From Eledone cirrhosa (lineage: Eukaryota), in assembly GCA_964016885.1 (NCBI GenBank), contig OZ024743.1, positions 60,078,001 through 60,142,000 on the forward strand: a DNA stretch of 64,000 nucleotides, given 5' to 3'. Of the stretch, positions 8,274 to 63,368 are shown one piece after another. Position numbers and translations under genes: made by a program. The notes under the pieces are model-generated. The model saw nothing but the letters and a program-made list of their open reading frames with translations, was not told where the DNA came from and ran no database searches. The number at the start of each line of letters is the position of its first letter. Position 1 is the stretch's first letter.

Positions 8274-8314
<41 letters not shown>

Positions 8315-8316
<2 letters not shown>

Positions 8317-11555: not shown

Positions 11556-11618
<63 letters not shown>

Positions 11619-14684: not shown

Positions 14685-16696
14685 TATATAGAATTCACAA
14701 GAATCAAAGCTATGTTCAAAGCATTTATTCACTTACAATTGTTTCATCCAAACCTAGTCTTGGGGTCTGCGGAGCATTTTTCAATGCCTATACATATAAT
14801 TGACCCCCTATCCAACGCAAGGGACATACAGATACATATATATATATATTGATGTACAGTGGAGTGACATATATTATACGATACTATATTTGTACAGCAA
14901 TTCAAATTTAAAATCAAAATTAAAATACATGCGGCAGATAACACAGATAATGTAAGAGGATAGTTCCATAATCAGATCTAGTAGATAGTGTATGCGTTAG
15001 TCATATATGGTGCATGCAAGTGTGTCTCATTTATATACGAGTATTGTGTGGCAAGGTGTTACATGTAATGCAAGCACTTTAAGCGGGTAAGCAAGAGTAT
15101 TATGGTGGTTGTAATGGGAGTGTATTTTTTGTATAGATCAAAAAAATATGTGTGCAGGAAAATAAAAATAAAAAGAAAAAGAAAAAGAAAAATAAAAATA
15201 AAAATAAAAAGAAAGTTATGGTTTTCGCATCCACCACCATTTTCACATTCGGAAAAAGGAAGTTATAGTTTTCACATCCATCACATATGCTACGATGAAT
15301 TCGTATTGAATGTTTGATGTAGTAAATAATTGTAACGTATTGAGGCTCGGTGTTATTTAATCCATATTTATAGAATAGGTTCTTTCTGCTGCGAGAATTT
15401 ACAGTGGTTTATTATCCGGAAGTAGGTACGTAATTAAGTGGAGTTAATGCGTAAGGGGAGGTAACTAGATGATTCTCATAACTAAATTCATTGTTCTAAC
15501 ATATATTATATGGTGCCTTAATTGAGTCCCTTATATAAAAGGTTATATATTTATATTTAATTTCAAATACAGTCTACTCTCAAAACATATCAAAGGACCA
15601 ATTAGAATGTTGTCTACATAACCCCGGGTAAGCTATGGAGCAGCGTACGGCTGTTTTAATGATAAAATCAAATACATCTCTTAGGTAAACAAATACATCT
15701 CTCATTTACAATGTCATTAATCTATCCATCAATATGCATATATAATCCATATACAATTCATTGCACCACCCTGCATATAAGTTAGACATATCCCTTATGT
15801 TAATAAATTAATCCTATATATATCTGATGTTATTACTCTATACATTTAACTACAGATGCATATATAATTCACTGCCGTATCTAGTATTTAAAGTTTATAT
15901 AGACTGTATTATATTTTAATCCCTATATAATTATAAGTAATTAAAAGTAATTATATTAAAAGTTGGTGTTTATGGGGTTATTTCTAGGGTATAAAGTTAT
16001 AGATATATAGAATGATTTGTGTTGAGGAAAGGGTGGATCAGAGAGTGTGGTGTAGTGGTGGAGGGCAAGCTCTTGAGGTGCAGTATTAAAAGTGGTGATG
16101 AATTCAAATCTGACATTGTTATATACTAGGTTTAAAGCTTTTGAAGGAGTGTCTGAAGCGGTGCTGGCACGACGCAAACACTTCCGATTATAGTATGCGT
16201 CTCTAGTACACTAGGTTACATAATTTATTAGGTGGTTTGTACGATGACGCCTTACCTATCACTTCCCATTGAAGTGTATATTATCTATTTCTAGTTTTCA
16301 GATAGTGTATGTTGCTAGATAGTGAAGTGGAGTGGGCTAAACTGTGTTTTTTGAAAGAATGGAGATGTGAGTTGTATCTCGTTTTGAAGCAGTTCGAAGT
16401 AGAGCCTATATAGGTTTCAGAAGAGTTGCTAGTTCTGACCGTGCATGAGTAGATGATGTCCTTGATTAAGCAGTTTTTACCTGAATTGCTGTACAAATAT
16501 AGTATAGTATAATATATGTCACTCCACTGAACATCAATATATATATATATATATATGTATCTGTATGTCTCTTGCGTTGGACAGGATGTCAATTATATGT
16601 ACAGGCATTGAAAAATGGTCCGAAGACTCCAAGCCTAGTTTGGATGAAACAATTGTAAGGGAATAAATGCTTTGAACATAGTTTTGATTCTTGTGA

Positions 16697-16737: not shown

Positions 16738-16740
<3 letters not shown>

Positions 16741-16935
16741 TGTAATCTTAGTTTTACGAATATTGAAAATAATATTCGATTTGTTCCCAATTATGCAAAC
16801 TGCCACTTTTAAGCCATGTCAGTAGAATGAGCCCCTCATTCTTGCTCCTGTGTTGGCATGTAAACAGAAACTATAGACACTAAAGTTTCTGGGTGATTAC
16901 CCTTCATCGGTGCAGTTTAGTGTTCAGCTGCCAAC
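16738..16935 (-). mobile_element. Partial copy of family B with degenerate HHR
   Basis: Minus strand reads aaactgca-CCGATGA-a-gggt-aatc-accc-a-GAAA-ctttagtg-TC-tatagttt. Confidence 0.65.
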
Positions 16936-17839: not shown

Positions 17840-19292
<1,453 letters not shown>

Positions 19293-19419: not shown

Positions 19420-19471
<52 letters not shown>

Positions 19472-19714
19472 GTAAGTATGCATGTATACGTACATACATA
19501 TATGTATACAGACGTACAGTAGCATGCACATATATATATATATATACATATATACATACATACATATGCATACAGGTACACATACATATATGCACGTATC
19601 AGTTTAGCGGCGCTAACGTCGCTTTGTTCGTTTGTAAACAAACTGAACAGCCTGAATTTATGCCATACGGTGTTAAGGCAACCACGTCACCTTTTTGTTC
19701 AACACTGACACAGG

Positions 19715-19759
19715 AACGATGTACTAGTTTCAAGCTTGTTAGCTATCATCAGCACCGTT
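19715..19759 (-). ncRNA. Minimal type I hammerhead, family A
   Basis: aacggtg-CTGATGA-t-agct-aaca-agct-t-GAAA-ctag-TA-catcgtt, with palindromic ACTAGT at stem/loop III. Confidence 0.9.
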
Positions 19760-20184
19760 TACCCATCTGCCAGATAGTTGAACGTTAGAAAGTATATACT
19801 TTCCTTATGAAAATTAACGGCTGAGCAGCCTAATTTGCATATTGAGTGAGTTAAATCGGTCAGGCATACCGAAAACGATAAATTGAAACAAAATGAAAAC
19901 GAAATTTCATTTCTCACTCTTAGTATGGCACTTACTTAAATGTAAGTATGCATGTATGCGTACATACATATATGTATACAGACGTACAGTAGCATGCACA
20001 TATATATATATATATACATATATACATACATACATATGCATACAGGTACACATACATATATGCACGTATCAGTTTAGCGGCGCTAACGTCGCTTTGTTCG
20101 TTTGTAAACAAACTGAACAGCCTGAATTTATGCCATACGGTGTTAAGGCAACCACGTCACCTTTTTGTTCAACACTGACACAGG

Positions 20185-20229
20185 AACGATGTACTAGTTT
20201 CAAGCTTGTTAACTATCATCAGCACCGTT
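20185..20229 (-). ncRNA. Minimal type I hammerhead, family A
   Basis: Same motif; stem II variant agtt/agct keeps pairing through a U-G wobble. Confidence 0.88.
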
Positions 20230-21007
20230 TACCCATCTGCCAGATAGTTGAACGTTCGAAAGTATATACTTTCCTTATGAAAATTAACGGCTGAGCAGCC
20301 TAATTTGCATATTGAGTGAGTTAAATCGGTCAGGCATACCGAAAACGATAAATTGAAACAAAATGAAAACGAAATTTCATTTCTCACTCTTAGTATGGCA
20401 CTTACTTAAATGTAAGTATGCATGTATACGTACATACATATATGTATACAGACGTACAGTAGCATGCACATATATATATATATATACATACATACATATG
20501 CATACAGGTACACATACATATATGCACGTATCAGTTTAGCGGCGCTAACGTCGCTTTGTTCGTTTGTAAACAAACTGAACAGCCTGAATTTATGCCATAC
20601 GGTGTTAAGGCAACCACGTCACCTTTTTGTTCAACACTGACACAGGAACGATGTACTAGTTTCAAGCTTGTTAGCTATCAAAGCGACGTTAGCGCCGCTA
20701 AACTGATACGTGCATATATGTATGTGTACCTGTATGCATATGTATGTATGTATATATATATATATATGTGCATGCTACTGTACGTCTGTATACATATATG
20801 TATGTACGTATACATGCATACTTACATTTAAGTAAGTGCCATACTAAGAGTGAGAAATGAAATTTCGTTTTCATTTTGTTTCAATTTATCGTTTTCGGTA
20901 TGCCTGACCGATTTAACTCACTCAATATGCAAATTAGGCTGCTCAGCCGTTAATTTTCATAAGGAAAGTATATACTTTCGAACGTTCAACTATCTGGCAG
21001 ATGGGTA

Positions 21008-21052
21008 AACGGTGCTGATGATAGTTAACAAGCTTGAAACTAGTACATCGTT
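21008..21052 (+). ncRNA. Minimal type I hammerhead, family A
   Basis: aacggtgCTGATGAtagttaacaagcttGAAActagTAcatcgtt. Confidence 0.88.
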
Positions 21053-21477
21053 CCTGTGTCAGTGTTGAACAAAAAGGTGACGTGGTTGCCTTAACACCGT
21101 ATGGCATAAATTCAGGCTGTTCAGTTTGTTTACAAACGAACAAAGCGACGTTAGCGCCGCTAAACTGATACGTGCATATATGTATGTGTACCTGTATGCA
21201 TATGTATGTATGTATATATGTATATATATATATATATGTGCATGCTACTGTACGTCTGTATACATATATGTATGTACGTATACATGCATACTTACATTTA
21301 AGTAAGTGCCATACTAAGAGTGAGAAATGAAATTTCGTTTTCATTTTGTTTCAATTTATCGTTTTCGGTATGCCTGACCGATTTAACTCACTCAATATGC
21401 AAATTAGGCTGCTCAGCCGTTAATTTTCATAAGGAAAGTATATACTTTCGAACGTTCAACTATCTGGCAGATGGGTA

Positions 21478-21522
21478 AACGGTGCTGATGATAGCTAACA
21501 AGCTTGAAACTAGTACATCGTT
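21478..21522 (+). ncRNA. Minimal type I hammerhead, family A
   Basis: aacggtgCTGATGAtagctaacaagcttGAAActagTAcatcgtt. Confidence 0.9.
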
Positions 21523-21828
21523 CCTGTGTCAGTGTTGAACAAAAAGGTGACGTGGTTGCCTTAACACCGTATGGCATAAATTCAGGCTGTTCAGTTTGTT
21601 TACAAACGAACAAAGCGACGTTAGCGCCGCTAAACTGATACGTGCATATATGTATGTGTCCTGTATGCATATGTATGTATGTATGTATATATGTATATAT
21701 ATATATATATATGTGCATGCTACTGTACGTCTGTATACATATATGTATGTACGTATACATGCATACTTACATTTAAGTAAGTGCCATACTAAGAGTGAGA
21801 AATGAAATTTCGTTTTCATTTTGTTTCA

Positions 21829-21897
<69 letters not shown>

Positions 21898-31665: not shown

Positions 31666-32922
31666 ATAGATAGAAGGTACCCACTTACATGTTGTATTGG
31701 AGAGAATAACTCTCTACTCTGGAAATTTACATTACCTATTAAGTTCACTGAGATGCAACCGGTACTAGCAGTTAAACCCATACAAATCCCGTCAACTCGG
31801 TATATATATACATATATATGTATATATATATATATACATAATATATATAAATAATAAATTTGAAGACTAAAATCCAAAGAGGGCTCGATAAGGATAAATA
31901 TATATCAAATATATAAGAACCGTAGTGCAAATATTTATTAAAATAACAGATTAAAGTTTAAGCAAAGAATCGCTGCTTTCACCTTTAACATGATCTTCTG
32001 AAACTAACAAAGTCAATCTGTAAACGCAGAAGTGGATATTTCAAAAAACGTTGCAACCGGAGGAAGACAGGAAAACAAAACTTTGGTTCGTGGAAACGTT
32101 CCCTGGCAAAGAACGGGAAAAAACGAATATAATACGTCATTAATAGGAGCGGTGAAAAACAATTACGCGCAAAGAAGTCGTAGACTAATGTTCTCTTAGG
32201 TGGTTCATAGAGACGTTTTCTGGCAATGAACGGAAAAAAACGAAGATAATACGTCATATGTGGGGCGTGGAGAACAATTGCACGCAAAGACAAACCACGT
32301 AAATGGTATACCTGAAGTCGCTTCAGAGTTAAGAAGTCGCTTCAGAGTTAAGAATAAAGTAAATAACATACAATACAGAGGTAATAGAAGTTAAATAAAT
32401 ACATACACGCATGCAAATACGTACATACACAAGGATACGCGAAAACACTTGCCATGGGTATACAAATCACGCACATATAAATATGTGTGTGTGTGTGTGC
32501 GTGTATACAAATAAATAATAATTAAATAAACGTAAATAAAGAAATAAATACGTACATAACAAGCGCGCACACATCCCTACATGTAAATACACAAATTTTC
32601 GGAGACGTAAGTCAACCAAAACATGAAGTACACATATAAACACACCCTACATACGTACGAACCTGCATACTCAGACAGACGCAAAACTCACCGTATACAC
32701 ATAACCAAACCATATGTGCCAGAATATATAAAACATTATACGCCATAACATATACAATCAAATATACGTACGAGAAAGTATACGTACCTACACAAACATA
32801 CAGGTAATATACTTACCTATGCAAATAAATAATGGTATAAACAAACATATACTTAGCTACCACATCAAGACGTAAAATATCCACGTATAGATCGTACTAT
32901 CCGTTAGGGTATAAAGTGGGCT

Positions 32923-33295
32923 TTAATACAGGAAAATTTGGTGCAATTTATGTTTACAAGCCAAAATTGCCTCAATTTTTTTGTTTAAGATGTGGTCTGT
33001 GGCGTAGAGTATTTCCAGGGCCTCAGCGGTGCAGAGGTCACATGGTCTTTTATTTCCGTTATACGATCTAGCCCTAGCTAGGATCTCCCAGTGTAACTTA
33101 TATTGGGTGTGGTTGTCTTTTAGACTCCAGATATAAGCTGAAAATGGCGGCATATTCCTTCTTAGAGGGTAACGAAAAGAATGGGTATGCATGTAAAGAC
33201 GCTGCTTGAATCTATTGGCGGTTAACCCTATGTAGGCCCTACGGGACGTGGGTGTTTCAACCTTACATTTGTAGACAATGTTACTAGAGAGGCAT
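32923..33295 (-). pseudogene. PLE GIY-YIG endonuclease fragment
   Basis: CLSSNIVYKCKV..RAYIGLTANRFKQR..PCDLC..EALEIL. Confidence 0.9.
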
Positions 33296-33344
33296 GAAAT
33301 ACTATTAACATTTCTTACTCTACGACTCCTAACCTTGCACATAA

Positions 33345-33828
33345 CATCACAGCTTCAAATTTAGCTAAACTACCTAGCCGTAGGAACACGTGCAACCCTG
33401 TAGTTAGTACTAACTGTAATTGTAGGAATCTGGTCGATTGCCCCCTTTTCGGGAAATGCCTCTCTAGTAACATTGTCTACAAATGTAAGGTTGAAACACC
33501 CACGTCCCGTAGGGCCTACATAGGGTTAACTGCCAATAGATTCAAGCAGCGTCTTTACATCCATACCCATTCTTTTCGTTACCCTCTAAGAAGAAATATG
33601 ATGTCACTTTCAGCTTATATCTGGAGTCTAAAAGAAAACCACACCCAATATAAGTTACACTTGGAGATCCTAGCTAGGGCTAGATCGTATAACGGAAATA
33701 AAAGACCATGTGACCTCTGCGCCGCTGAGGCGCTGGAAATACTCTACGCCACAGACCACATATTAAACAAAATATCTGAGGCAATTTCGGCTTGTAAACA
33801 TAAATTGCACAAAACTTTCCTGTATTAG
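33345..33828 (+). pseudogene. PLE linker and GIY-YIG endonuclease fragment (frameshift near 33598)
   Basis: TNCNCRNLVDCPLFGKCLSSNIVYKC..AYIGLT..PCDLC. Confidence 0.9.
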
Positions 33829-34792
33829 AGCCCCACGTTATACCCTAACGGATAGTACGATCTATACGTGGATATTTTACGTCTTGATGTGGTAGCTAAG
33901 TATATGTTTGTTTATACCATTACTTATTTGCATAGGTAAAAATATTACCTGTATGTTTGTGAAGGTACGTATACTTTCTCGTACGTATATTGTTATTGTA
34001 TATGTTATGGCGTATATTTTTTTATATATTCTGGCACATATGGTTTGGTTATGTGTTATACGGTGAGTTTTGCGTCTGTGTCTGTATGCAGGTTCGTACG
34101 TATGTAAGGTGTGTGTATATGTGTACTTCATGTTTTGGTTGACTTACGTCTCCGAAAATTTGTGTATTTACATGTAGGTATGCGTGTGCGCTTGTTACAT
34201 ACGTATTTATTTATTTATTTACGTTTATTTAATTATTTATTTATGTGTATACACGCACACACACACATATTTATATGTGTATGATTTGTATACCTATGGC
34301 AAGTGTTTTCGCGTATGCTTGTGTATGTACGTATTTGCATGCGTGTATGTATTTATTTAACTTATATTACCTCTGTATTGTATGTTATTTACTTTATTCT
34401 TAACTCTGAGGCGGAGATTCATTCGGTTTCCTAGTTAGAATTTTAGTTTACGACTTCAGCTATACCATTTACGTGGTTTTGTCTTTGCGTACAATTGTTC
34501 TCCGTGCCCCACATATGACGTATTATCTTCGTTTTTTCCGTTCATTGCCAGAGAACGTCTCTATGAACCACCTAAGAGAACATTAGTCTACGACTTCTTT
34601 TATACCATAAACGTGGTTCTGTCTTTGCGCGTAATTGTTTTTCACCGCTCCTATTAATGACGTTTTATATTCGTTTTTTCCCGTTCTCTGACAAGGAACG
34701 TATTACCACGAACCCACGTATCGTCTTCCTGTCTTCCTCCGGTTGCAACGTTTTTTAATTATCCACTTCTGCGTTTACAGATTGACTTTGTT

Positions 34793-39217: not shown

Positions 39218-40286
39218 GCATTCTCGCAATATTATACACAACTGAATCATTCGCCTAATATAGGTGTTGCCTCCATTGCTGAACTCCACGTGGTGTCAGT
39301 AATAGCCACACTTATGTATAGCATTTTTGAGCAAAAACCCGTTGATAACACGGCTTCCTTGTTCAATCATCTTACCAGAAGCCCAACATTCTTTATGTAG
39401 GCGGACAGTACCTGAATTTGGAGTCGCAGAAACCAAATACTGGATTTTACCATCAGTCCAGGGTCCGGGTAAATTATCAACACATATTTTTATTGTTTGA
39501 CCCGAATTACTTGGTCGTTTGTGTTGGCTGTGCAGATGATCTGTTTAACCATCATCTAGTGTGTTTGGCCCTTAACGTATGTTGTAGCTTTGATTCACAT
39601 GAATCATTGAGCGCTTGCCACACATATCGGACGTTGATTTTCGTTAATTCCTGAGCTGAAATACGATTCTCGCTAATTTATATTTGTATTAATCTCCAGA
39701 GTCTAGCTATTGAGCAGTTAATTTTATTGATTTTTTTTAGTTGCTTCTATTGACTGTTGAATAGCTCTGTTATATTTAACCATTCTGTCGAGAGCTTTAT
39801 TCGATTTGTGATATTTTGCATTCTCGCAATATTATACACAACTGAATCATTCGCCTAATATAGGTGTTGCCTCCATTGCTGAACTCCACGTGGTGTCAGT
39901 AATAGCCACACTTATGTATAGCATTTTTGAGCAAAAACCCGTTGATAACACGGCTTCCTTGTTCAATCATCTTACCAGAAGCCCAACATTCTTTATGTAG
40001 TCGGACAGTACCTGTTTTTGGAGTCGCAGAAACCAAATACTGGATTTTACCATCAGTCCAGGGTCCGGAAAAGTATCAACACATATATTTTTATTGTTTG
40101 ACCCGAATTACTTGGTCGTTTGTTTTGGCTGTGCAGATGATCTGTTTAACCATCATCTCAGTGTGTTTGGCCCTTAACGTATGTTGTAGCTCTGATTCAC
40201 ATGAATCATTCAGCGCTTGCCACACATATCGGACGTTGATTTTCGTTAATTCCTGAGCTGAAATACGATTCTCGCTAATTTATATT

Positions 40287-40291
<5 letters not shown>
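39213..40291. repeat. Direct tandem duplication with a 600-bp period
   Basis: gcattctcgcaatattatacaca... at ~39218 and ~39818; about 475 bp near-identical; (TA)n on both sides. Confidence 0.9.
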
Positions 40292-40324
<33 letters not shown>

Positions 40325-40327
<3 letters not shown>

Positions 40328-40867
40328 GGAAAAAATGAAACGATATTTCATTTCCCACTCTTAGTACGGCTGTTACTTAAATATAAGTATGTACACGTAC
40401 ATACATATATGCATACCGACGTACAGTAGTATGTATATATATATATACATACATGCACACATATATATATGTACGTATGGATTCACCGAACATTTATTAT
40501 AATGCTCGGTGTGTTTGTAAACAAACATCCCGTATTAAGCCGTAGTGTCTAGCAACCACCGTTGCTCGTTTGTTCAACACTGACAAAGGAACGCTGTACT
40601 AGTTTCAAGCTTGTTAGCTATCGTCAGCAACGTATACCTTCCTGCCAGATTGTTGAACGTATATACTTATCTTATGCATATTAACGGCTGAGTAGCCCAA
40701 TTTGCATATCGAGTGGGTTATCGTTTTCGGTGCACCCGGCCGATTAACCCACTCGATATGCAAATTGGGCTACTCAGCCGTTAATATGCATAAGGTAAGT
40801 ATATACGTTCAACAATCTGGCAGGAAGGTATACGTTGCTGACGATAGCTAACAAGCTTGAAACTAGT
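40325..40867. mobile_element. Diverged family A copy with an inverted terminal segment
   Basis: Unit 40325-40720, then its reverse complement over ~40720-40867. HHRs at 40591-40633 (minus) and 40832-40867 (plus, truncated). Confidence 0.88.
40591..40633 (-). ncRNA. Minimal type I hammerhead, family A variant
   Basis: acgttg-CTGACGA-tagctaacaagctt-GAAA-ctag-TA-cagcgt. Confidence 0.88.
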
Positions 40868-41099
40868 TTTTCCTTTTTCTTCCCTTTTCCCTTCCGTTAC
40901 TATTTTTTCCTCTCTCTTCCTTTTTTTCCCAATAATTTCCATGAGTTATTGACGCCTTGGGGTGGGATATATTGTCTTTAATGCGTTGAAATATCCAGGA
41001 CCTCCAGCAGACAACAATGAAGGAAACTTTTCTCCTGTTCGTGCTTTCCTCTTATTTATAAGTAGACCTTATCCACCAGCAACACAGCCCCTGCTTATT

Positions 41100-41160
<61 letters not shown>

Positions 41161-41730
41161 ACATGTAATATGGAATTAAGTACGTATAGGATGCATACAT
41201 ATATATATATATATATATATATTTGCGTGTGTGTGTGTATGTGTGTGTGTTTAATGGTAGCTATGATGCTTCCATAGGCGGTATGCCAGTTGAGCACTCT
41301 ATGTTCTTACAGAGAAGAGTGTTATATAATATAAAACGAAAACTCAGTGATGCATCTGGACTCAGTTTATTGTGTGTTACAATTGTTTCGCCGGCGGACA
41401 GCTCGAGACACGACCATTGTATGGATCTGTCTGATTCTAGAACTGCAGGATCGTCGGACACTGGCAATAATTTCGTAACACATTTTCTCACTGGGGTGTT
41501 AGCTTCCGAAAACATCTTCCTCGCTTGTCCTGCTGTTGGCTGTTGTTTTTTTACGTCATCATAAATGCTGGCCAATAATTGCTGCCATACTGTCCATCAG
41601 CTACTTTCCTTCCGACACACTTCAATGAATTCATGCTGGGTTTGGTATTTCACAAGTCCACTCACACACATATATACACACATATACACACACATATATA
41701 CATACACATACATACACACGCGCACACATG

Positions 41731-41762
<32 letters not shown>

Positions 41763-41979
41763 CACATATGTATATATACACACCTATATACATATACACT
41801 CACACTCACAGGCGCACACACATATACACACACGCATACAAGGACAAACACATGCGTACGTGTACATCTACTCATATACACAAACACGTACAAACATATA
41901 CATAGACACGCACATGTACATACACACACCTGTCCATATAGAGAGGCACAATGACAGACACGCTCCCAAACACACATAT

Positions 41980-42030
<51 letters not shown>

Positions 42031-42037
<7 letters not shown>

Positions 42038-42475
42038 AAATATTTCGTATCTCCAAGGAAATACGGTTTTAGGAAGCCGTAGCTATGCAAACACCGGGGG
42101 GGCTAACGCCCTCTGGCGATGTCCAGCAGAAGCAAGGGGGAGAACCGTCTATGCATTTCAGGCTTAACTGCCCTTCGTCAGGACTGTCTCTCCCAGCGCT
42201 TACGACTGCTGGACGAGAATATAGCCGAGAAAATATACTTTTCTCGTCTGTGTAAATGAGGTGATTAATCTCACTTCTTTATGAAGCAGTCGTAGGCGGT
42301 GGGAGGGACCGTCCTGACGAAGGCCAGGTAAGCCTGAAATGTATAGACGGTCGTCCCCCTTGCTTCTGCTGGACATCACCAGAGGGCGTTAGCCCCCTCC
42401 CCCGCCCCCCGGTGATTGCATAGCTACAGCTTCCTAAAACCGTATTTCTTTGAAGATACGAAATAGTTATACATA
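42031..42475. mobile_element. GC-rich foldback element with an HHR in both arms (family E)
   Basis: Arms 42031-42210 and 42285-42475; located between (TA)n tracts. Confidence 0.88.
42307..42352 (+). ncRNA. Minimal type I hammerhead, family E; mirror copy at 42144-42188
   Basis: gaccgtc-CTGACGA-aggc-caggtaa-gcct-GAAA-tgta-TA-gacggtc; the mirror copy has palindromic ATGCAT at stem/loop III. Confidence 0.9.
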
Positions 42476-42510
42476 TTGTATAAAGCTATGCTTGAAGCGA
42501 AATCCTATTT

Positions 42511-42573
<63 letters not shown>

Positions 42574-42634
42574 GTGTATATGTACACACACATAAACGTA
42601 CCCACAAACAGTCCCTTACTCTATGTTAGGTGCA

Positions 42635-42671
<37 letters not shown>

Positions 42672-42907
42672 GCTCATATACATTCAAACAAATACGCGGC
42701 CAATTAGCTCCGTGCCCACGTACATCTACAAAGATACATACAAGCACACATATATCTCTGTCCGTACTCAACTGAGATATACTCACAGTCATATAAATCT
42801 GTGTGTGATTTAGTTACCTTGATTTGCTGATATAATTATGCCGTTAGAGAGCTAATCCCTTAGTAAATCAATGTCCCTTTCGTGCATTAACATACAAAAA
42901 CATTCTA

Positions 42908-43270
42908 CTTCTTCTTCTTCTTGCTCTCGCTCTCCGAGGCCGGGGTCATCCTCAAACAGCGATACCAAAGCATCATTATATCGAAAGCCGATCAGGTCCT
43001 CAATCCTGCTCCATCGCTGCCAGCTGCTCTGCATCCTACAAAGTTAATTGGAGCATCCCTAGATCTTATCCAGTCATCTGTTTTGTGGCCTGCCACGGGG
43101 CCTCTTCCAGCCTGCAGCCACTGAGTCGAACGAGCATAAGGCCCTGGTAGGAATGTATGGTGGAAAGTGGAGAACATGGCAGTACCAGTGCATGCTGCAG
43201 ATAGCTATAAGGTGGAAAGCTGTGGGCTGATGCCTGACACTTTGTTGGAAACGTGGTCTCATCCGATGCG
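42908..43270 (-). mobile_element. 3' end of an RTE-like LINE
   Basis: GWKRPRGRPQNR motif near the end of the reading frame, followed by a short 3'UTR and a (GAA)n tail. Confidence 0.55.
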
Positions 43271-43296
43271 TTTGAACAGAATACAGATAATTTATC

Positions 43297-43440
43297 CTTA
43301 TACTCAGATGATATATATAATTTATAAGGTATATATATTCTCAGATGCTATATGCCATGTATATGTATATATATTCTCAGATGTTATATGTCATATATAA
43401 GGTATATATATTCTCAGATGTTATATATCACATATAAGGT
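43297..43440. repeat. Minisatellite, ~33-35-bp unit, about four copies
   Basis: tatatattctcagatg(t/c)tatat... repeated. Confidence 0.8.
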
Positions 43441-44225
43441 AAAAACTACTCCAAGTCGCTATCTATTACTTTTATCAATAGTTGCCATTGAATTAGTATT
43501 TGTATCATTCACTCAGACCAGTGACTTCCCAAACTACTAACCCATACCATGACATGCTTGATCTTCATTCTACATACAGGTGTGCCAATGTGTGGCCATT
43601 TGTCTTCGTCTCACATATCTCGATTTTTTCTTCCTACTCTTGTATGGAATCTCCAGACCAGGGAATATAGTCTAACATTGTAGACAAAGCCCATTCGGCT
43701 CCATATTAGATTTATTGATATAACATTGCAAACCCAAGCAAGAAAATCAACGACTCCAAATGGAAATAGTAGCTGAAACCAATCAACAAGGCTTAAAAGA
43801 TTTAATGACAATTTGTATTGATTACTCTTGGCGTGATATGATGGCAAATATTGCCAGGAAGATTATAACTGCATTCTTGTTAATCGAATAAACATCAAAT
43901 CATAATAATATTTATTTTATGAAGGCAGAATAATGTATTCACAAATAAACTAAATAATAGAATTAAAAGTAAATATTCTAAGAGTTCAAATAAATTGAAC
44001 CATTGAGAGTGGATGAATCTGACCGTTTTAGAACTGAGCTGACCTGCCGATTGAAAGAAAATGTATATATATATATATATATAAACTAATAATATATTTC
44101 TTAATGTAGAGTGTCGTTTGGTTTGTTATTTCTGTCTGCCATTCCATACACCCGAGAAATTAATCATTTTATTCATCAAAACCAATGTATATACGTATAT
44201 ATATATACGCATATATATATATATA

Positions 44226-44963
44226 AATGGAAAAAAGGAAACGAAATTTCATTTCTCACTCTTAGTACGGCTGTTACTGAAATATAAGTATGTATACGTA
44301 CATACATATATGTATACAGACGTACAGTAGTATGTATATATATACATACATGCACACATATATATATATGTACGTATAAATTTACCGAGCATTTATTATA
44401 ATGCTCGGTTTGTTTGTAAACAAAAATCCCGAATTGAGCCGGACAGTGTTTAGCAACCATCCTTGCCCTTTTGTTCAACACTGACAAAGTAACGATGTAC
44501 AAGTTTCAAGCTTATTAGCTATCGTCAGCACCGCATACCTTCCTGCCAGAGGATTGAACGTCTGAAAGTATATACTTTCCTTATGCATATTAACAGCTGA
44601 GCAGCCTAATTTGCTTATGGAATGAGTTAATAGGCCGGGCGCACCGACAGAGGTAAATGGAAAAAATGAAACGAAATTTCATTTCTCACTCTTAGTACGG
44701 CTGTTACTTAAATATAAGTATGTATACGTACATACATATATGTATACAGACGTACAGTAGTATGTATATATATACATATATGCACACACATATATATATA
44801 TATATCAATATATAGATAGATATATATATATATATGTACGTATGGATTTACCGAGTATTTATTATAATGCTCGGTTTGTTTGTAAACAAACTTCCCGAAT
44901 TTAGCCGTACAGAGTTTAGCAACCATCATTGCCCTTTTGTTCAACACGGACAAGGGAACAATG
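44226..44963 (-). mobile_element. Family A tandem copy (about 1.6 units, 466-bp period)
   Basis: aaatggaaaaaa.gaaacgaaatttcatttctcactc at 44226 and ~44656. HHR at 44492-44534: gcggtg-CTGACGA-tagctaataagctt-GAAA-cttg-TA-catcgt. Confidence 0.88.
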
Positions 44964-45092
44964 TATATATATATATAATATAACTTAGAGTTTACACTCA
45001 ATGGGGTCATTTACAATTATTTCAGCTCAATTATTGAGCAGTATAAATTAATATATGATAAACATTTACATGTAAATGTTTATCATATATTA

Positions 45093-49003: not shown

Positions 49004-50061
49004 ATTCCTTGAATCTCAGTCATTGATGTTGGTTAACTGGAAAGTCCGTTGGAATGAATATCAAGCCACTACCTGCAGCCTCAGATATTCAGGACGTATC
49101 GGAGGGTTCTTGCTGTTCCAAGCAAGCATGCCTTTTGAAGCGTTCCAAAAAGCGTGACGGGGCCGATTTTCTTTAACCATCCCTGGAAACTTTTGGAGAT
49201 AGTCCCCAGTGCGCCTATGACAATCGGGATCACTTTGACTTCATGGCAGTTCCAAATCCTTTTCACCTCCCACTTTAGGTCCTGGTATCGGTTAATTTTC
49301 TCCCTCTCCTTCTCTTGCACTCTCGTGTCGAAAGGGCAGGCCACATCCACAATCAGACACGATCTTTTTTCTTTGTCCACAACCACCAGGTCAGGTCTAT
49401 TGTGTTCCAGTTTTTTGTCCGTCTGTATCCTAAAATCCCACAGCACCTTCACCTGATTGTTCTCCATTACCGACTCTGGCCTATGCTCATTCCATTTCTC
49501 AGAGTGTGGTAAATTGTTTACTTTGCACAGGTGCCAGTGGATCACCCTGCCCATCACATCGTGTCTCCAGCCTTTATAGTGGGTCTGGGCTAGGTGTTTA
49601 CACTCGGACACAATGTGAGCCACAGTCTCCTCTCTCTCTCTCCACAGATCCTGCACAGTGGGCTAGCCTCCTCCTTGTAAATATGGTGCTTCAACCATTT
49701 CGTTTTGAGGGCCTGCTCCTGCGCAGCCATTAGCATTCCTTCTGTAGCCTTTTTGAAGTCTCCTCTTCTCAACCAGTTCCATGTCTGTGGATCTCTAAAT
49801 TCAGTTTTCTCAAAGAAGGTACTATGAAAGGATTTTCCCTTAAGGCTGCTCTTCCTCCTTGATGTTATTTCCTCCTTGGACATCCCCTGGCCTACTGTCC
49901 CCTTCTTCAGTACAGTTCTGAGCATTGGCTCCTTACTATAGGTCACGTATTTGTATAGGTTGTTTTTCTCCATCTGAACACAGTCCTCTATGCTGATAAG
50001 ACCTCTTCCACCCTCAGATCTCCTTAGGTAGAGTCTATCGACATCACTCCTCTTGTGGAAC
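49004..50061 (-). mobile_element. 5'-truncated RLE-type LINE (R4/Dong-like) in (TAA)n
   Basis: DVDRLYLRRSEGGRGL, ATEGMLMAAQEQAL, CRIC..ETVAHIVSEC (CCHC), RHD and NRPDLVV..IVDVACPFD (PD..D nuclease); (TTA)n on both sides. Confidence 0.9.
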
Positions 50062-50128: not shown

Positions 50129-53100
50129 GACGACCTACGTAGTAAATCGTATCATCGTGAGCTCCGCAAAGGTTTGTTGTTTTCATTTGTTTAAAATTGC
50201 CATTTATGGAAAGTTTTTTTATTGTTAACTGTATATAAGTGCACATACATTGATTTCTGAAAAGGACACTCAAAAAGATTTAGGCCTTGAGCCTAAAATT
50301 TGAACTATTATAATTATTAAAAAAAAACTTTCTTTGAAAAAAACATGGACGACTCACAGCCACACGAAGCTGACAGCCTTCCTCACAAACTAACACCTCA
50401 CACCGAGACCATAATTGTAAATATTACTACGTTTGCCAACATTAAAAATATAAGCAGTACATATTTTAAATTTGTCTCAGGCAGACATTCATTAACCGCC
50501 ATTACCAATGACTGCATGTGTGAAAGCCGCCACCACCACCAACACTACCGCGACAACAGAAACGAAAGAAAAAAATAAATTAACCCGTGATATCGAAATG
50601 AATTCAACCAAAATGAACTCTTCCACACCGAACACCACTGACGCCACCACCACCACAACTGATACTAAAATTAATAATAACAAAAATAACGATAACAACA
50701 ACACCAACAAAGACATTAAGAATACCACCCTGAGTTTTGCCAGAGTAGCAAAACAGTGCGAAGCATTTCAGGTAACTCAGGAGGAATTAGAAGAAGCCAA
50801 AGAAATGGTAAAGAAAGATGGATACAGGGTCAGCCAAGATAATCTAAATAGCGAAAGAAAAGCAGGAGAACTGGTCTGGATCTGGGATGGAGCTCCTGAT
50901 CCAAGCGGACCAAAAAAGCATTGAGGAGATCCCAGAGGTAATAGACCTCACTGACGGCAGCCACCTCACCGTAATTGTCGAGGGCAGAAGGCCTAGGTGT
51001 GTCGTTTGAGGTGAAGGAACCCACCTAAGGGCTTTCTGCCCTCAGGCTAAAAGGTTGAGGCCACCTCTCCTACCCACCCCAGTGACTAAACCATCAACAC
51101 CACCAGCAGCAGAGATGGCAGCAACAAATGTAGCAGCAACAACAGAAGAAACTGTAACAGCAACAACCCCAGCAACAGTAGCAAAACCAACACCACCACC
51201 ACCCAACGCGCCAGAACTAGCACCCTCGCCAACACCATCAACAACGCCACAACCAAAACTAACGCCTGTGGAGGATTTTCCACTCCCCGGCCTATCACAA
51301 CTGGAGACAGATTGTGAAGACGAGGAGTGGGAAACGGTATCAGGAAAAATGAAAAAAGAAACCAAAAAAGAAAAAAATTCTCTTCCGTACCCCTCCAAAA
51401 ACAAAATACAGAGGGAAACAAATAAGCTATCAAACAAAAAAGTTAGGACAGATATGCCACCATCCACACCAGCATCACCAGCCCCATCACCCCAAACACC
51501 AACACGATCACCATCATTAACCCCAAAACCACAATCAACTACACCACAAAAGTCACCAAAAAGCGAAACAGAAACAAACTCACAACAAACGCAAACAAAA
51601 CAAAACAACCAAAACGATACACACTACACAGCATTAAATTTGAACAACAACCAATTATTACACTACATCCAACACAACACCAGCATCACAGAAAAAGACT
51701 ACACAACAACCCAAACTTCACACCACCTCCACACATACAAATCACTCGCATCGCACAGAAAACATACATGACACTAAAACAAAACTTCCCCAAAGGCATC
51801 GGAGACTTCCGACAAGCACTCTACAGGAGGATTTATAAGGACATCCTTCCTGAGGAGGTCACAAGCAGTGAAAATGATGGAGAAAGCGTCCTTCCTCTAC
51901 GAGAAGTAGGGTAAGTGGTCTTTCCCATCTTTTCCACACTATTTCAACATGAACTCACTCAGAATAGACAGCTTAAATACGCGTGGCTTGGGGTCGTCAT
52001 GGAAGCAGGGCCACCTGCTCAACGACCTCAGGCCACTAAACATAGATGTAGTGGCCATCAGCGAGACCAGAATCTCCGAAGCATTAGCCTTCGCACCGAT
52101 CTTCGCCGGCTACGATGTGTACGCATCTCCCAGCCGTCCGGGATCGGAGGGGGGAGTTGCTGTGCTTTTTCGGAGAGGTTTGGGTCTTACCATACGAGCC
52201 ATCTTCCTGGACCCAGAAAGTAAGTTGGTGGTGCTGGACGTGACCAGCGGAGACGGACAAGCTTTCAGGTTAGTGGCCGTCTATGTCCCGACAGGAACAG
52301 GGAGGCCTGATTTCTTCCGGCCTCTGGAGACCTTTCTTGGAACGTCCCGCTCTTTAGTGTTAGTGGGCGACTGGAACGGAATATTAGATGCACGCTATAC
52401 TGTGTGGGATTAGTGGATAGGAGAGGAGGGTGCAAGAGTCTCACCAACCTGCTCAGGCGTTTTCAACTGTCTGACAGGTAACGATTGGATTTCCCGAATG
52501 TGCCAATGTGGACTTGGACAAATCGCATAGTGTCATCCAGATCATATCTAGATATAGTATTTTGGGGGAAATAGATAGGTCTAGCATAGGTTGTCCACAA
52601 TTCAAGATAGTCAGCTACACGGACCACAAATTCGTGATGTGTGTGCTTGACTTAGATAGGCTTCATAGACGAGGACCCGGCTACTGGAAGCTAAACGCGT
52701 CCTTACCAGCGCGCAAGGCCTACAGATACCGGATTAGCGAACTAGTTAAGCGGGCGTTGACGGGGGCCATCGTCAACAACAAGTGGTGGTTTGCTCTGAA
52801 AAGAGCGATTAGAATAGAGTCCATTAGGTTTAGTAAGTCTTTAGTAATAGAGAAGAATAGAGCAGAGGGAGAACTAGTTAGAAAATTAGACGAGGCGCTT
52901 AGCAAAGGCATCGCGACCGACGTACTTGCGGCGAAATTGGCCCTTGACCAATTCTTCAATGCAAAGTACGAAGGCTGCGTTATCAGAGCTAGGGTGCGTG
53001 CTCTCAGATACGAAGGGGCGAAAGCCGTTCAATGGGCCCGAGTGGCGGAGGCGCGTCGTGGCATCAAAGCCACCATCCGGTCTTTGGTGGACCACGACGG

Positions 53101-55511
53101 GCGCATGCTACTCGATCCCGGGAAAATGTGTGAAGCTTTTCAGCGACACTTCGCTCAAATGTTCGGGGGCAGCGGCGGGCCGGATCGCGGGATGGACTTT
53201 AGTGTCTAGATCCACGGACTGCCGCGGCTCTCGGCCCCTGAGGCGGAGTGTTGCGAAAAGCCGATAACAGCCGCTGAAGTACGGGAGGCAATGACTGGCT
53301 GCACAAGGGGTAAATCGCCTGGTTTGGATGGTCTGCCCTATGAACTTTACGTACAAATGCCAGACTTGTTCGGAGTCCTCTTGGCGGACGTCTTCTGGGA
53401 CTAGCAACAGAACGGGAGAATTCCCAGCTCTGTGAGCCAAGGAGCGGTGGCGCTGCTGTGAAAGGATCCGAACAAGGCGGATAACATACATAATTTTAGG
53501 CCCATAACTCTGCTAAACACAGAGTTCAAGATTTTGGCCGAGGTGCTAGCAAAGAGGCTGGCGCTTGTCGTTGGTGGTTGTTCGGGAGAGGCGCAGACAT
53601 GCGCCATTCTCGACAGATCTATCAACGACAACCTCCACCTCATGTGAAACATCGTAGAGAGGGTAGCTAGTAACCTGGCACGGGTGGGTCCTTGATCAAT
53701 TTAGATCAGTCGAAAGCTTTCGATAGGGTAGACCATAGTTACCTAGCGGCAGTCCTGAGAGCGGCTGGCTTCGGGTCCGTCTTCAGAGGCTGGATCGCTG
53801 CCATGCACAGCGATATGTGGTGAGAGTGAACGGTCACTACGTATTGACTCTCGAGCCATTACTGCACAAACTGGAGACGTCGAGGGGGGTCCCGCGCAAT
53901 ACTAGGATGCGGAAGATCCGTGTCAGCATATGCGGACGATGTCACCGTAGTGGTGTCGAACGCCAAACACATCGAGGCGATTGGCACTACACTGGGAGAT
54001 TACGAAGCGGTGACAGGAATAATAATCAACCGGGAAAAGTCAGCGGGTCTGCAGCTCGGCACCTGGAGAGGCAGGTCCATGCCGTCCAACAGCGTCGTCG
54101 GGCGCTGGACGGACGGACCGGTTAAATTGCTAGGGGGTCTGGTTTGGTCCGGACCTCCAGACGGACAAAAACTGGGACGAGGTGACGAGCAGGGTGGCTT
54201 CTCTCACCCAGAAATGGGCGGAGAGGAAGCTATCCCTGAAAGGTCGAGCGGAGGTGGCTAACGCATACATCGCGTCCGTCATCTACTACCGCCTAACCGT
54301 CGTACCTTGTCCTAAGCCCCGCCTGACTGCGCTGGAGCGTTTGCTCTTTCGCTTTTTGTGGAAGGGACGCGCTCCGATGGTCAGGCGGTCCATCTGCTGT
54401 CAACACCCGCTACGTAGAGGGCTGGGCATGCCGTGGCTGATGATGCGCAGACACGCGGTCAGGCTACGATATCTCCACCTCTTCCTCGACGGTGATCAGG
54501 TGTGGTCGCCGTTTGCTAGACACGTCTTTCCCCAGCTCGTCTCCTTGACGAAGCTGCAGTCGCAGGTCAAGCGAAGACCGAGAGGGAACGCTTGGAGACT
54601 GGAATGTCTTCAGGCGCTCACAGCCCTCGGCCATTTGGGCAATATGATCGGTGGAAACTCCACCTTGGCGTTCTATAGAGGATTAGTGGAGGGGAAGAGC
54701 GACGATGTACTTGGAGAAACTCTAAGCGTCGACGAAAATCAACTAGCCATTCCCTTCGGACGGACCTTTGGGCCGAGGCCTATGGACAACTTCCAGAAAT
54801 CTCTGGCCTGGCAGAGCTACCTGGGTGGTTTGCCAGTTCGGGATAAACTCTACAGGCATGGAGGTGCCGTCAGCCGGGCATGTCCGAGATGCGCGCAGGG
54901 CGACGAAACCGTCCTGCACGCACTCGTCCAGTGTCCGAGCATTGTGACTTGTGGGGTTATGTCGAACACCTGCTGTCACGTGTAGGACGGATCCGGCTAT
55001 CAACTGAGTCCATCGTGAGGATTTCCCCACCCCCTTCCTTTAGCCGGGAAGGGCAGGCAGTTTTTATCTGTCTGGTGGCGAAAGAGATAGTATGGTGGAC
55101 ACGTTTGAAAGGGCTGAAGACGAGCACTTACCTCTTCGGTGATGCCCTGATTAACTTTTTCAAATTTCATTTGAAAAGGAAAATCAGGGTAGAGAGTGAA
55201 GTGCTCTCTTCCCAGCATTTTGTTGAAATATGGGTGAGAGAAGCAAGTATGGCCCGAGTGAATGAGCCTACTCTGAGTATGTGTCTGTAAATTAAAGGTG
55301 CAAAACTGGGAGAGGGCACTTGCCCTGGTGATCAGGGTCACTGTGGTCTTTTAATGGGCTTTCTCCACAAATGTCTCTCGGAATTTTTCTTTGTTATTTT
55401 ATTACATCCTCTGTTTTTTTTACACGCAGAAATGCCCATTTGTACCGTCCTGTATTGTCCTGTACTGTCCTTAATGTTTACTTTATGTAAACCCTTTTGG
55501 TTAATAAAGAA

Positions 55512-58264: not shown

Positions 58265-61200
58265 GTGACAGCGATCTCAGCACCACCAGCAGGACCAGTA
58301 GCAGCAGCAATAGTGGTGCTGCTGAAAAAGGGACCACTTCTTTTGCAGGTTTCGCCCGAAATTTCGAAACAGAGGAGGAGATAGCAGTCGCAAGGTCCAT
58401 GGTGACAAGAAACGCCAATAGAGTTTCCTTGAAACATCCACCCGATTTTTTCAAGGCCCAGCTGCTACGGACGGTAACTTACCGCACCGTAAGCAAAATG
58501 TCACATCGGGTGGAGAGAGCCACGGAGGCTAACATCAAAAAACCCTTGGGGTGCGTCTGGGCACGCAAAACCGACATCACCGAAGCAGAAAGTACGCCAC
58601 AGTAGACGTACTTTTCGCAATACCCCAAGAAGCGAAGTCTCACTCTTTGGAAACTCTAAAGAATGAGGAGATAGTCTTGGTGCCCTCCTACTTCGGGCAG
58701 AAAATTGTGAGGGTCAAAGTGACCCAGGTCACACCCGACGTGCCCATTCCTTGGCTGGCTGCGTCTGTCCTTGCTGGAATCGAGAACAGGACGACCATGC
58801 TGCAAGTAGAGAACATAGGGAGAGAGAACTCGTTAGGTATAGGCATGCAAATGCTTATACAAACTGACCAGGAATGTGTCGACGCTATCCCCGTTATCAT
58901 AGACATCGAGGAAGGACTCCAACCCCCTATAAGCGTGGAAGAAGACGGCCAATATGTTATCTCTGTGGGTCAAAGGGTCACCTCAGGGCCTTTTGCCCGC
59001 AGAAGACAGTGAAGAAGAAGGCTCCTCTCTTTCCAATACCTGGTCCGCTGCTACCAGGAGTAGGGCAGGCAACCAACGTAGAAGCCCCTTCCACGGTGAA
59101 TAGGAGAGAACGTCCGTGACACACGTACCAAGGCCACGAAGAACTAAAGCAGCAGCATCAGTGGCGACAACGTCAGTAGCTACATTTGCAGTAACTGCAA
59201 TAGCAACAAAATCGCCGGAGATGCTCACTACCACCACTAACAGCCGTGGATCCCATACCTCACCCAGACGCCACGGAATCCGACATGGAGTCTGAGGCGG
59301 GAGTGAAGTGGCAAACGTTCTGCCACAAAATACAAAAAAAAACTAAAAAACCCTTAGCTTCAACCTTCTAAAGCGAAGGCACACAAAGAGGGGTAAAGGC
59401 TGCAAGGAGACTTGCAGCAACACCACCATCAACACCACAACACCACAAGTACCACGAATCAACACCACAAGCACCACCGCCAACAAAAACCACACCACCA
59501 CCAGCGTCACCAAAAACACCAACAACGCAAACAAAACAAAACACACACACCAAACAGCAACAAGAAGAAAACAGCAACAAAATCACCCATCCTCCCAAAA
59601 AGTACACATCCATAAACCTGACAATAAAGAACTCATACAATATATAAAGCAGCACACAGACATCACAGAAAACAACTACTACACCCCACCAACACCGAGT
59701 ACTCTGCCGACAAACATAAGCATCACTGATATCAAAATAGAACAGTACAAACTTTTAAAACAAAAATTCCCCAACGCAGTTGGAGACTTCAGAGGGTCAG
59801 TTACCAAGAGGATATACACTGACATCCTCTTGGAAACCCCCATGACCAGTCAAAGGGACGGTTCTACTGTCCCTTCAACACACGATCAAGTTAAGTGACC
59901 CCTTCTCATAGCATCGTTTCTCATCCAGCATGGCCGTACTTAGAATAGGCAGTATAAATACACGTGGCCTGGGGTCATCTCGGAAGCAGGGTCACCTGCT
60001 CAACGACCTCAGGTCACTAAACATAGATGTGGTGGCCATCAGCGAGACCAGAATCTCCGAAGCACGAGCCTTCGCACCGATGCTCGGTGGCTACGATGTA
60101 TACGCATCTCCCAGCCGTTGAGGATCGGGGGATGGGGTTGCCGCCCTTTTTCGGAGAGGCTTGGATCTCGCCATACGGGCCATTATTATGGACCCAGAAA
60201 GTAAGTCGGTGGTGCTGGACGTGACTGGCAGCGAAGGCAATGCTTTCAGGCTAGTGGCCGTCTACGCCCCAACTGGGGCAGGACGACCAGATTTCTTCAG
60301 ACGTCTAGTGACCTTTCTTGGAATGTCCCGCTCTCTGGTGTTAGTGGGCGACTGGAACGGTATCTTGGATACACGCTGGGATTGTGTGGGGCTAGTGGAT
60401 AGGTGAGGAGGGTGCAAGAGTCTCACCAACCTGCTCAGATGTTTTGAACTGTCTGATAGGTATCGACTGGATCACCTGAATGTGCCAATGTATACATGGA
60501 CAAACCGCATCGGGTCATCCAGATCGTATCTCGATAGGGTATTCTGCAGAAAACTAGATAAGGCTAGTATGAGTTGTCCACAATTTAAAATAGTCGACTG
60601 CACAGACAACAAATGTGTGATCTGAGATCGACATAGACAAACTTCATAGACGAGGACCCGGTGATTAGAAACTGAACGCGTCTTTCCTGGCGCACAAAGC
60701 CTGCAGAGACCGGATTAGCGTATTGGTTGAGCGGGCGTTGACGGGAGCGGTCGTCAACAAAGCCACAATTCGGTCTTTATCTGACAAAAACGGGCGCGCA
60801 TTGCTCGAACCCGAGCAGATGTGTGAGGCTTTTCAGCAGCACTTTGCTGAATTCTTCGGGAGCAGCGGCGGGCCGGATCGGGGAATGGACTTCAGTGCAT
60901 ACCTCGACGAACTGCCGCGGCTCTCGACGACCGCAGCAGAGTCTGGCGAAAAGACAATAACAACCGGTGAAATATGGGAAGAAGCTAGCTAACTGCATGA
61001 GGGTTAAATTGCCAGGTTTGGAGGGTCTGCCCTACGAGCTTTATGCATTTATGTCAGACCTGTTCAGTAACCTCTTGCCAGACGTCTACTGCAACTGAGA
61101 GCAGAACGGGAACATTCCCAGTTTTGTGAGACAGGGAGCGGTGGCGCTGCTGAGAAAAGACCCAAACAAGGGGGATGTTATCGATAACTTCAGGCCCATA

Positions 61201-63368
61201 ACCCTGCTAAACGCAGAGTTCAAGATTTTGGCTAAGGTGTTAGCAACGAGGTTGGCGCTTGTCGTCGTGAGAGAGATCAGATATGCGCCATTCCGGACAC
61301 GACAACCTCCACCTCATGCGATACCTCCTAGAGAGGGTGGTTATGGAACCTGGCACGAGTGGGGCCCTGATCAACTTGGAACAATCCAAAGCATTCGATA
61401 GAGTCGACCATCGGTACCTGGCGGCGGTCCTCGAGGCAGCTTATTTCGGGCCAGTTTTCAGGGGTTGTATCGCTGCGATGTACAGCGATATCTGCTCAGT
61501 TGAGAGGGTGAACTATCACCTGTCGCAGCCGTTCATCATCATGCGCTCGGTCCGCCTGGGTTGTCCCTTCTCGTCCCTCTTGTACGTATTGGCTCTCAAG
61601 CCGTTACTGCACAAACTGGATGCGATGAGAGGCGTCCCACGCGAACTTGGATGCGGGAAATCCGAGTCGGCTTACGCCGACGACATCACCATTGGGGTGT
61701 CGAGCACCAGAAACGTCCTGATGCTCGGCACCGCTCTCAAGGAATACGAAGCGGTGACAGGAGCAAAGATAAACCAGGAAATGTCGGTGGGCTTGCAGCT
61801 CGGCACCTGGAGAGGCAAGTCCATGCCTTCCGACAGCGTTGTGGGGCGTTGGACTGACGGACCTGTTAAATTACTCGTGGTCTGTTTCTGACCGGACCTC
61901 CAGATGGAGAAAATCTGGAGCGAGGTGACGAGCAGGGTGGTCTTCCTCACCCAGAAATCGACCGAGAGGAAGCTGTCCCTGAAAGGCCGGGCAGAGGTGG
62001 CGAATGCGTACATCGCATCCGTCATCTGCTACCGCCTCACCGACGTCCCTTGCCTCGACACTACTCTGACCAAAATGGAGCGCCTCCTCTTCCGCTTTTT
62101 TTGCAAGGGACGCGCTCCCAAGGTCAGACGATCCATCTGCTGTCAACACCCGTTGCGTGGAGGACTGGGTTTGCCATGGCTGATGATGCCCAAATATGCG
62201 CTGAGACTGCGACACCTCTGGTGCTTCCTTGACGGTGAACATGTGTGGTCGCCGTTAGCCAGGCACGTTCTCCCACAGCTCGTCTCCTTGACGGAGCTGC
62301 AGTCCTGGGTCAGGAAAAGACCGAGGGATAGCGCTTGGAAACTGGAATGTCTCCAGGCACTCACCGCCCTCTGCCAGCTGGGCACCAGTATCGTGGAACA
62401 TTCACCTCGGCGTACTATAGAAGACTAGTGGAGTGGAAGAGCGACGACGTTCTCGGAGAGATCCTGGGCGTCGAAGAAGATCAGCTGTTTGCTTTCTTCC
62501 GTAGAACATTCAGCCCAGGGCCTATGGATAACATCCAAAATTCCCTGGCCTGGCAGTGCTACCGGGAAGCGTTGCCGGTTCGAGATAACTCTACAGGCAC
62601 AGAAGTGCCGTCAGCCGAGCCTGTCCGAGATGCGCGCATAGCGACGAAACTGTAGTGCACGCACTCGTTCAGTGGCCAAGCATTGCTGACTTGTGGAGTT
62701 ATGTCGAACAGTTGCTGTCGCGTGTAGGACTGATACGGTTATCGACTTAGTCCATTGTGAATATGTTCTCGCCCTCTTCCTTCGAGGGGAAAAGGGCTGG
62801 CGGGTTTCATCTGCCTCGTGGCCATAGCGAAAGAGATTGTGTGGTGGACAAGGTTGAAAGGGTTAAAGACAGATACTTTCCTCTTCCCGAATCCCCAATT
62901 AACTTTTTTAAGTTTCACTTGAAGAGGAAAATAAGCGTGGAGAGGCAAGTGCTGCTTTGTAGCAAGTTTGTTGAAAGGTTGGTGAATGTAGCGAATGGTC
63001 CGAAAGAACGGGACCGCTCTGAATATACGCCTTTATTTTGAGAAATGGAAACACTTTAGAGAGGGCGCTTGCCCTGGTGGTCAGGGTGGCCATGGTCTTT
63101 TGTTTGGTTTTCGCCACGAGTAACCTTCGGAGGTTTCCCCCTGTTGGGAATTTTTAATTGTTTCAATTTTCATTCTTATTGTTTATATATATATATATGT
63201 TTCTATGTCATTTTTTTTCTTTTCTTATATAAATAATAAAAATCTTTACACGCACAAAACCCACATCGTACCGTCCTGTACCGTTCTGAGTCATCTGTAA
63301 TGTTTTTCATGATGTCAGCCCTTGTGGCCAATAAAGAAATCATTATTATTATTACTATTATAATTATT
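58265..63368 (+). mobile_element. Decayed Tx1/L1-group LINE (copy 2), 5'-truncated
   Basis: ORF1 with CYLCGSKGHLRAFC knuckle; ORF2 from 59930 to ~63040 homologous to copy 1 (SINTRGL, NFRPITLLN, AYADD); aataaa at ~63330 and an (ATT)n tail. Confidence 0.92.

Follow-up and report, generated by a model that had tools for sequence, protein, structure and literature searches.

Within the 64,000-nucleotide stretch of the Eledone cirrhosa genome analysed here (the window, in which all positions below are counted, + and - denoting strands), copies of a hammerhead ribozyme motif differ substantially elsewhere and keep their core. Is the ribozyme under selection while the repeat that carries it, family A, propagates in the 3.0 Gb genome of this animal, or is the family simply too young to have lost it?

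Hammerhead copies in the window and their fold

The copy at 40.6 kb (40580..40648, -) has the core CTGACGA at 40621-40627 and GAAA at 40603-40606; it is of type I with an extended stem I, and belongs to a lineage with a U.G pair in that stem. Stem I (ACGUUG/CAGCGU), extended through an internal loop plus two further helices, is followed by CUGACGA, U, stem II (AGCU-AACA-AGCU), U, GAAA and C-UA-G-U-A, where stem III, two pairs closed by a loop of two bases, lies within the palindrome ACUAGU. From the motif, the cut is predicted after GUA, between 40597 and 40596. The CUGANGA, GAAA and NUH elements are thus present in a three-way junction with an open stem I, as in type I hammerheads, and variation supports the stems, though independent double changes are few.

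The family A unit around this motif (40323..40740, -) has its 3' end at the second of two fixed sites described below, joined to (TA)n at 40281-40322. An inverted arm of the same insertion (40720..40867, +) carries a hammerhead core at 40838-40844; this copy ends at 40867, one base short of the cut site, so that its stem I is without the 3' strand. Another type I hammerhead, of a G.U lineage, occupies 44481..44549 (-; core 44522-44528) in an insertion of about 1.7 units (44224..44965, -), whose 3' end is fixed site 2 plus (TA)n and whose 5' end roughly coincides with the upstream unit's cut site. Here TT in place of TA in loop III breaks the ACUAGU palindrome, a change that is not a lineage variant. 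The third insertion is a head-to-head array: the left arm of 470-nt units (19468..20679, -; cores 19746-19752 and 20216-20222) ends in fixed site 1 plus (TA)n, and the right arm (20679..21833, +; cores 21015-21021 and 21485-21491) in fixed site 2 plus (TA)n.

We aligned the seven copies from these three insertions (19752-, 20222-, 21015+, 21485+, 40627-, 40838+ and 44528-), the window units being 75-87% identical by blastn. As the preliminary description had stated, CTGATGA versus CTGACGA is the sole difference in CUGANGA, GAAA and GUH; the flip of a stem I pair that it reported is real (acggtg/catcgt, G.U, against acgttg/cagcgt, U.G), and the remaining changes do lie in loops or create wobbles (loop II AACA/AATA, loop III TA/TT, stem II C>T, 2.6 A>G). 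An alignment of seven copies, drawn from just three insertions, is too small to establish selection by itself, and it is the genome-wide tests that carry this point. By way of illustration only, the sites varying at 10% or more within 40591-40633 in contigs of one DNA sequencing run (X1, possibly the assembly's own sample; its two tabulations differ by one site) were 1.3, loop II, N7 and 2.3, the last with two alternative letters; runs X4-X6 gave 3-14 contigs each.

Pair 10.1-11.1 is U.U in 96/113 copies and C.A in 13/113, the usual G-C closing pair being absent. In the available parts of PMC4209133, G10.1-C11.1 is given as highly conserved in hammerheads, yet outside the catalytic core letters, and hammerheads with a tiny stem III of this form are described as active only as dimers. 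Rfam returned no hammerhead in the window at gathering score, and none among 131 weak matches in 40300-45000, where its models may not cover this motif type; hence class membership is based on motif and variation. Judged by core and fold, the family A motif is a hammerhead without the usual G10.1-C11.1 pair, and its cleavage is predicted.

Identity of family A

The exact hammerhead core pattern has 27,500 matches genome-wide (control pattern, 0) and a 17-mer anchor in the flank has 32,427 (control, 1). Family A loci are solo copies, tandem arrays and inverted arms; at 56 of 158 loci at least two hammerheads lie on the same strand, in tandem non-coding units. GC in five monomers is 0.36-0.38. 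From the sequence, family A is confirmed as a non-coding mobile repeat bearing a type I hammerhead motif in every unit. Its high copy number, dispersal and low GC are those of retrozymes, and no RT plus GIY-YIG ORF between pLTRs, as in an autonomous Penelope-like element (PLE), was found for it. We accordingly assign it on these features to the non-LTR retrozymes, a known element class of which it is a new member. A search of the main texts of mainly open-access literature gave nothing specific on a published cephalopod retrozyme, on covariation in retrozyme subfamilies or on 10.1-11.1 mismatches; the supplements of retrozyme and PLE papers may contain similar motifs or family A. Four classes are 9-22% apart, with a diversity of 4-7% within classes, and three of them occur in the window. 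An older lineage (L188-L217) has a GUU site and C.A at 10.1-11.1, and shows tandem hammerheads in 6/31 loci versus 22/44 and 21/51 in the two youngest classes.

As far as the available parts of PMC7229834 and the preprint 10.64898/2026.07.22.740005 describe them, metazoan non-LTR retrozymes are, like family A, non-coding tandem repeats with GC under 45%. Both have one type I hammerhead per unit, occur as dimers to long arrays, have a predicted circle that is highly self-paired and leaves the ribozyme free, and share the genome with PLEs. The cut-to-cut monomers of family A are somewhat longer (410-540 nt versus 170-400 nt), and its two fixed (TA)n ends and head-to-head arms do not appear in those parts of the retrozyme descriptions; circular transcripts, characteristic of the class, are for family A a prediction. 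With the hammerheads of PLE pLTRs (PMC4209133, in part) it has in common the CUGANGA/GAAA core, a tiny palindromic helix III and predicted action as a dimer. In contrast to them, it is without an ORF and without the conserved G10.1-C11.1, and has a 6-bp stem I plus extension and a 4-bp stem II where theirs are of the minimal type.

Lineage-shared and private variants

For the core test, one unit per locus was taken at 113 loci, from 282 units spanning the region; this sample is biased because most loci were found by BLAST with window copies or L121 and by the core pattern, and a separate set comprised 38 loci found by the flank anchor alone. An allele was regarded as shared if present in at least 8 loci, or clustered in at least 4, and as private if present in at most 3, the counts being of alleles and not of mutational events. 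Lineage-shared variants were found in 0/11 core columns versus 84/294 outside columns (p=0.027), and in 0/15 columns when the four stem III palindrome columns were included (p=0.0075); the anchor-only loci gave p=0.031 and p=0.009, respectively. Private mutations were as frequent in the core as in the flanks (1.1% versus 1.4%, p=0.53), so that only shared variants are informative. Comparing shared with private counts in the 11 core columns alone gave no significant difference (p=0.08; anchor-only, 0.10). A core mutating like its flanks had been named beforehand as the observation that would speak against selection: this is what private, post-insertion mutations do, and what lineage-shared variants do not. 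Within the ribozyme, the shared changes are all of tolerated types (N7, loop II, GUA/GUU, wobbles) except for U.U to C.A at 10.1-11.1.

In one lineage N7-G8 is a CpG, both transitions of which should arise equally after insertion. G8 is catalytic in hammerhead ribozymes. The G8C result in PMC11167929 agrees with this. Genome-wide, 299 matches carry the tolerated transition, N7 C>T, and 140 the damaging one, G8>A; over the span of the first 100 T matches listed, C1 and C2 together have 84 distinct loci for T and 36 for A. When 40 loci of each variant were retrieved and sister units compared, two or more units had T at 11 of 25 multi-hammerhead loci (every unit at 10), against 2 of 26 for A (p=0.003). 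Since T is common to sister units and A rarely is, many T would already have been in the template, and A would nearly always have come later. As exceptions, A also occurs in a small number of arrays and in one inverted pair, and the T variant could alternatively come from recombination with other lineages. The avoidance of the core by shared variants and the N7/G8 contrast indicate selection in propagation, not after insertion, and the latter is direct genomic evidence of core integrity filtering what propagates.

Pairing in the hammerhead domain was tested on 112 copies (75 distinct) with a structure set a priori. Of all cells, 96.8% were paired, and 35 had changed on both sides (0/500 shuffles), a count that the relatedness of copies inflates; the both-sided changes are confined to 3 pairs, no more than in shuffles (291/500), and independent events are hence few. 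Pair 2.3-1.3, the stem I pair whose flip is described above, is G.U in 68 copies, U.G in 35, A-U in 4, U.U in 3, other in 3 and G.G in 0 (n=113); among the U.U copies, L106 is placed in the tree between the G.U and U.G groups and L114 elsewhere. Another pair, located in the extension of stem I, changes from A-U to U.G, and A.G copies are also present.

Over the whole unit, as judged on the folds of three natural monomers, shared variants kept pairs in 19/41, 14/29 and 16/29 cases (46-55%), where private variants did so in about 23-24% (p=0.004, 0.004 and 0.0006), a test that leans somewhat favourable because the structure derives from family members. The same comparison with a different alignment gave p=5e-6 to 4e-4, and slid controls kept pairs in 4-11%. 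Changes involving G.U account for 8-13 of the 14-19 kept pair states; outside the ribozyme, roughly one in two shared pair states was scored as broken, partly from shifted hairpin registers. Since pair-keeping changes span the entire unit, the flanks are not neutral, being themselves constrained by structure. Five monomers are predicted to fold as branched circles (z -7 to -12); the consensus that RNAalifold derived from 60 copies was weak and different (covariation term -1.84), and this fold was not recovered.

Selection on the ribozyme during propagation, proposed earlier from the window copies, is thus borne out by the lack of lineage-shared core variants, the N7/G8 asymmetry with its sister-unit sharing, and the pair-keeping changes. 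As read from the copies themselves, selection acts on the core letters and the fold, and we infer that its target is cleavage activity. The catalytic core is untouched by lineage variants, and individual copies decay without constraint; the ribozyme is therefore likely needed for spread, as would be expected of this known kind of element.

Insertion ends and the spread of family A

The 3' ends lie within one 30-column zone in 119 of 147 cases, 105 of which continue with TA, and 209 5' starts are scattered over the unit. Two fixed 3' ends, 56-59 nt apart, account for 18 and 56 ends, plus 6 and 33 in further loci; each of the 7 head-to-head insertions in which both ends can be seen, the 19468/21833 array among them, uses one fixed site on one arm and the other site on the second arm (p=5e-4). 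We read fixed ends joined to (TA)n, together with tandem and head-to-head arms, as a Penelope-like pattern. Penelope elements have two internal start sites and a tail (PMC11167929 and PMC8557442, each in part), and insertion of Poseidon PAc (PMC11167929) and of the Hydra clade (PMC8557442) resembles that of family A in having this tail at one end, an AT-rich or (TA)n target, 5' truncation and an inverted arm. The tail is 56-59 nt in family A versus 30-40 in Penelope elements, and family A is non-autonomous. Its core appears to be needed for the spread of lineages, whereas insertion of PAc in vitro was independent of the hammerhead: mutants of the hammerhead in this lizard element did not weaken it (PMC11167929). 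Other roles for PLE hammerheads could not be excluded by the authors of PMC4209133, in the part available.

A young PLE with intact 713-aa ORFs is present in the genome; the protein has RWR, DKT and CxCX5C motifs, is Hydra-clade-like and gave no match in a Pfam search. The family counts 87,058 first-look candidates and likewise ends at two sites in (TA)n, the target of the Hydra clade (PMC8557442, in part). Family A lies within 1 kb of 6/79 loci of this PLE (3 upstream, 3 downstream), always on the same strand. In one direct junction (L229, -) a family A hammerhead is fused at GAAAC, five bases before the cut site, to a 5'-truncated PLE ORF, possibly by a template jump onto a cleaved RNA end. 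The GAAAC junction is present twice, 450 kb apart, which is probably one event and only a hint as to the helper. Further Hydra-like and other PLE families exist in the genome, so the 713-aa element is a candidate helper, and the evidence for a Hydra-clade helper is weak. At L230 (and L219-L237) the pLTR of the 713-aa PLE is without a canonical hammerhead and carries CAGAAGA-U-CCC-GUUAA-GGG-U-GAAA about 40 nt before the first fixed end, with U.U as in family A and a misfit in stem III. Penelope-like RT-thumb/GIY-YIG fragments occur in the window at 5900-7200, 16143-16592 and 32918-33833, the last being an inverted end of the abundant 713-aa Hydra-type family.

Family A probably spreads as a retrozyme that uses a Penelope-like RT and endonuclease. 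Its multimeric transcripts would self-cleave at GUA/GUU, as dimers formed via the ACUAGU palindrome, and the monomers would be ligated to branched circles; the Penelope enzyme would nick (TA)n and reverse transcription start inside the unit, at two points that lie upstream of the cut site by about 155 and 210 nt, and then pass through the cut site to give arrays. New lineages would be founded only by templates with an intact core. Since the fixed ends are far from the cut site and copies read through it, the template is either a circle or an uncleaved multimer. That an uncleaved multimeric transcript is the template, with no circles formed and the selected hammerhead serving as a fold or elsewhere in the cycle (freeing the RNA from host transcripts, or cleaving late with the help of protein), seems to us unlikely. 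It would account for the scattered 5' starts, the non-canonical 10.1-11.1 pair and the fact that 3' junctions do not accumulate at the cut site (no excess, 102 matches versus 178 and 46 in controls), and uncleaved RNA is the dominant in vitro substrate of a Penelope element (PMC11167929, in part). Against it speak the closed branched fold maintained over the unit junction, the palindrome columns free of shared variants, a weak surplus of 5' ends, noted post hoc, in the cut-site columns 269-272 (5/14, p=0.016) and the circles known for mussel, coral and axolotl retrozymes (PMC7229834, in part).

It is less probable still that family A is the pLTR of an autonomous PLE, with selection acting on that element and arrays as by-products, as might be suggested by the common signature of two ends, TA target and inverted arm and by the derivation of retrozymes from pLTRs in 10.64898/2026.07.22.740005 (in part). 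Units adjoin directly in arrays, however (180 cut-to-cut monomers, tallied over overlapping loci), the PLE fragments next to family A come from several families, with TA-run joins in the three loci examined, and similarity to the pLTR of the 713-aa Hydra-type element is within the range of shuffles, a comparison covering one PLE family only. A satellite spreading at the DNA level by unequal crossover and hairpin template switching, its core conserved merely because the family is young, appears highly improbable. Long arrays with shared decay (C4 351.9 Mb; a G8A array at C5 83.3 Mb) and lineages only 9-22% apart would suit it; the dispersed insertions, whose fixed ends lie in (TA)n, the prominence of G.U-involving changes among kept states, and the N7/G8 asymmetry with sister-unit sharing do not, and the shared-variant, fixed-end and sister-unit tests largely refute it.

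Returning to Penelope-driven spread of a retrozyme, a joint reading of all these data can be offered only tentatively: a natural, genome-scale experiment in which the core is required in vivo though dispensable in vitro, with an unusual ribozyme swapping U.U and C.A at 10.1-11.1, a circle fold evolving by compensatory steps via U.U and A.G intermediates, and a Hydra-clade enzyme copying from two fixed internal sites. The results bear on the part, if any, that hammerheads play in the mobility of animal Penelope elements and retrozymes, where they are weak and depend on dimers, and family A supplies a testable set consisting of a monomer, two start sites, a (TA)n target and the young, intact 713-aa candidate helper.

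Other repeats were observed in the window. A ~795-nt tandem repeat with GAA runs (8300-11560) has a CTGATGA in each unit and no GAAA within 70 nt downstream. A third inverted repeat family with internal 33-nt repeats (18440-19230, also 380-800 and 16740-16930) contains a CTGATGA...GAAA motif at 18819-18825 (-), which is only a putative hammerhead. The second hammerhead family forms an inverted pair at 42030-42465 (cores 42175-42181, -, and 42314-42320, +), with arms 78% identical, a palindromic stem III (AUGCAU/AUGUAU), an AUA site and TA flanks. Decayed LINE fragments with RT and endonuclease domains lie at 49081-50060, 51910-55290 and 60669-62655.
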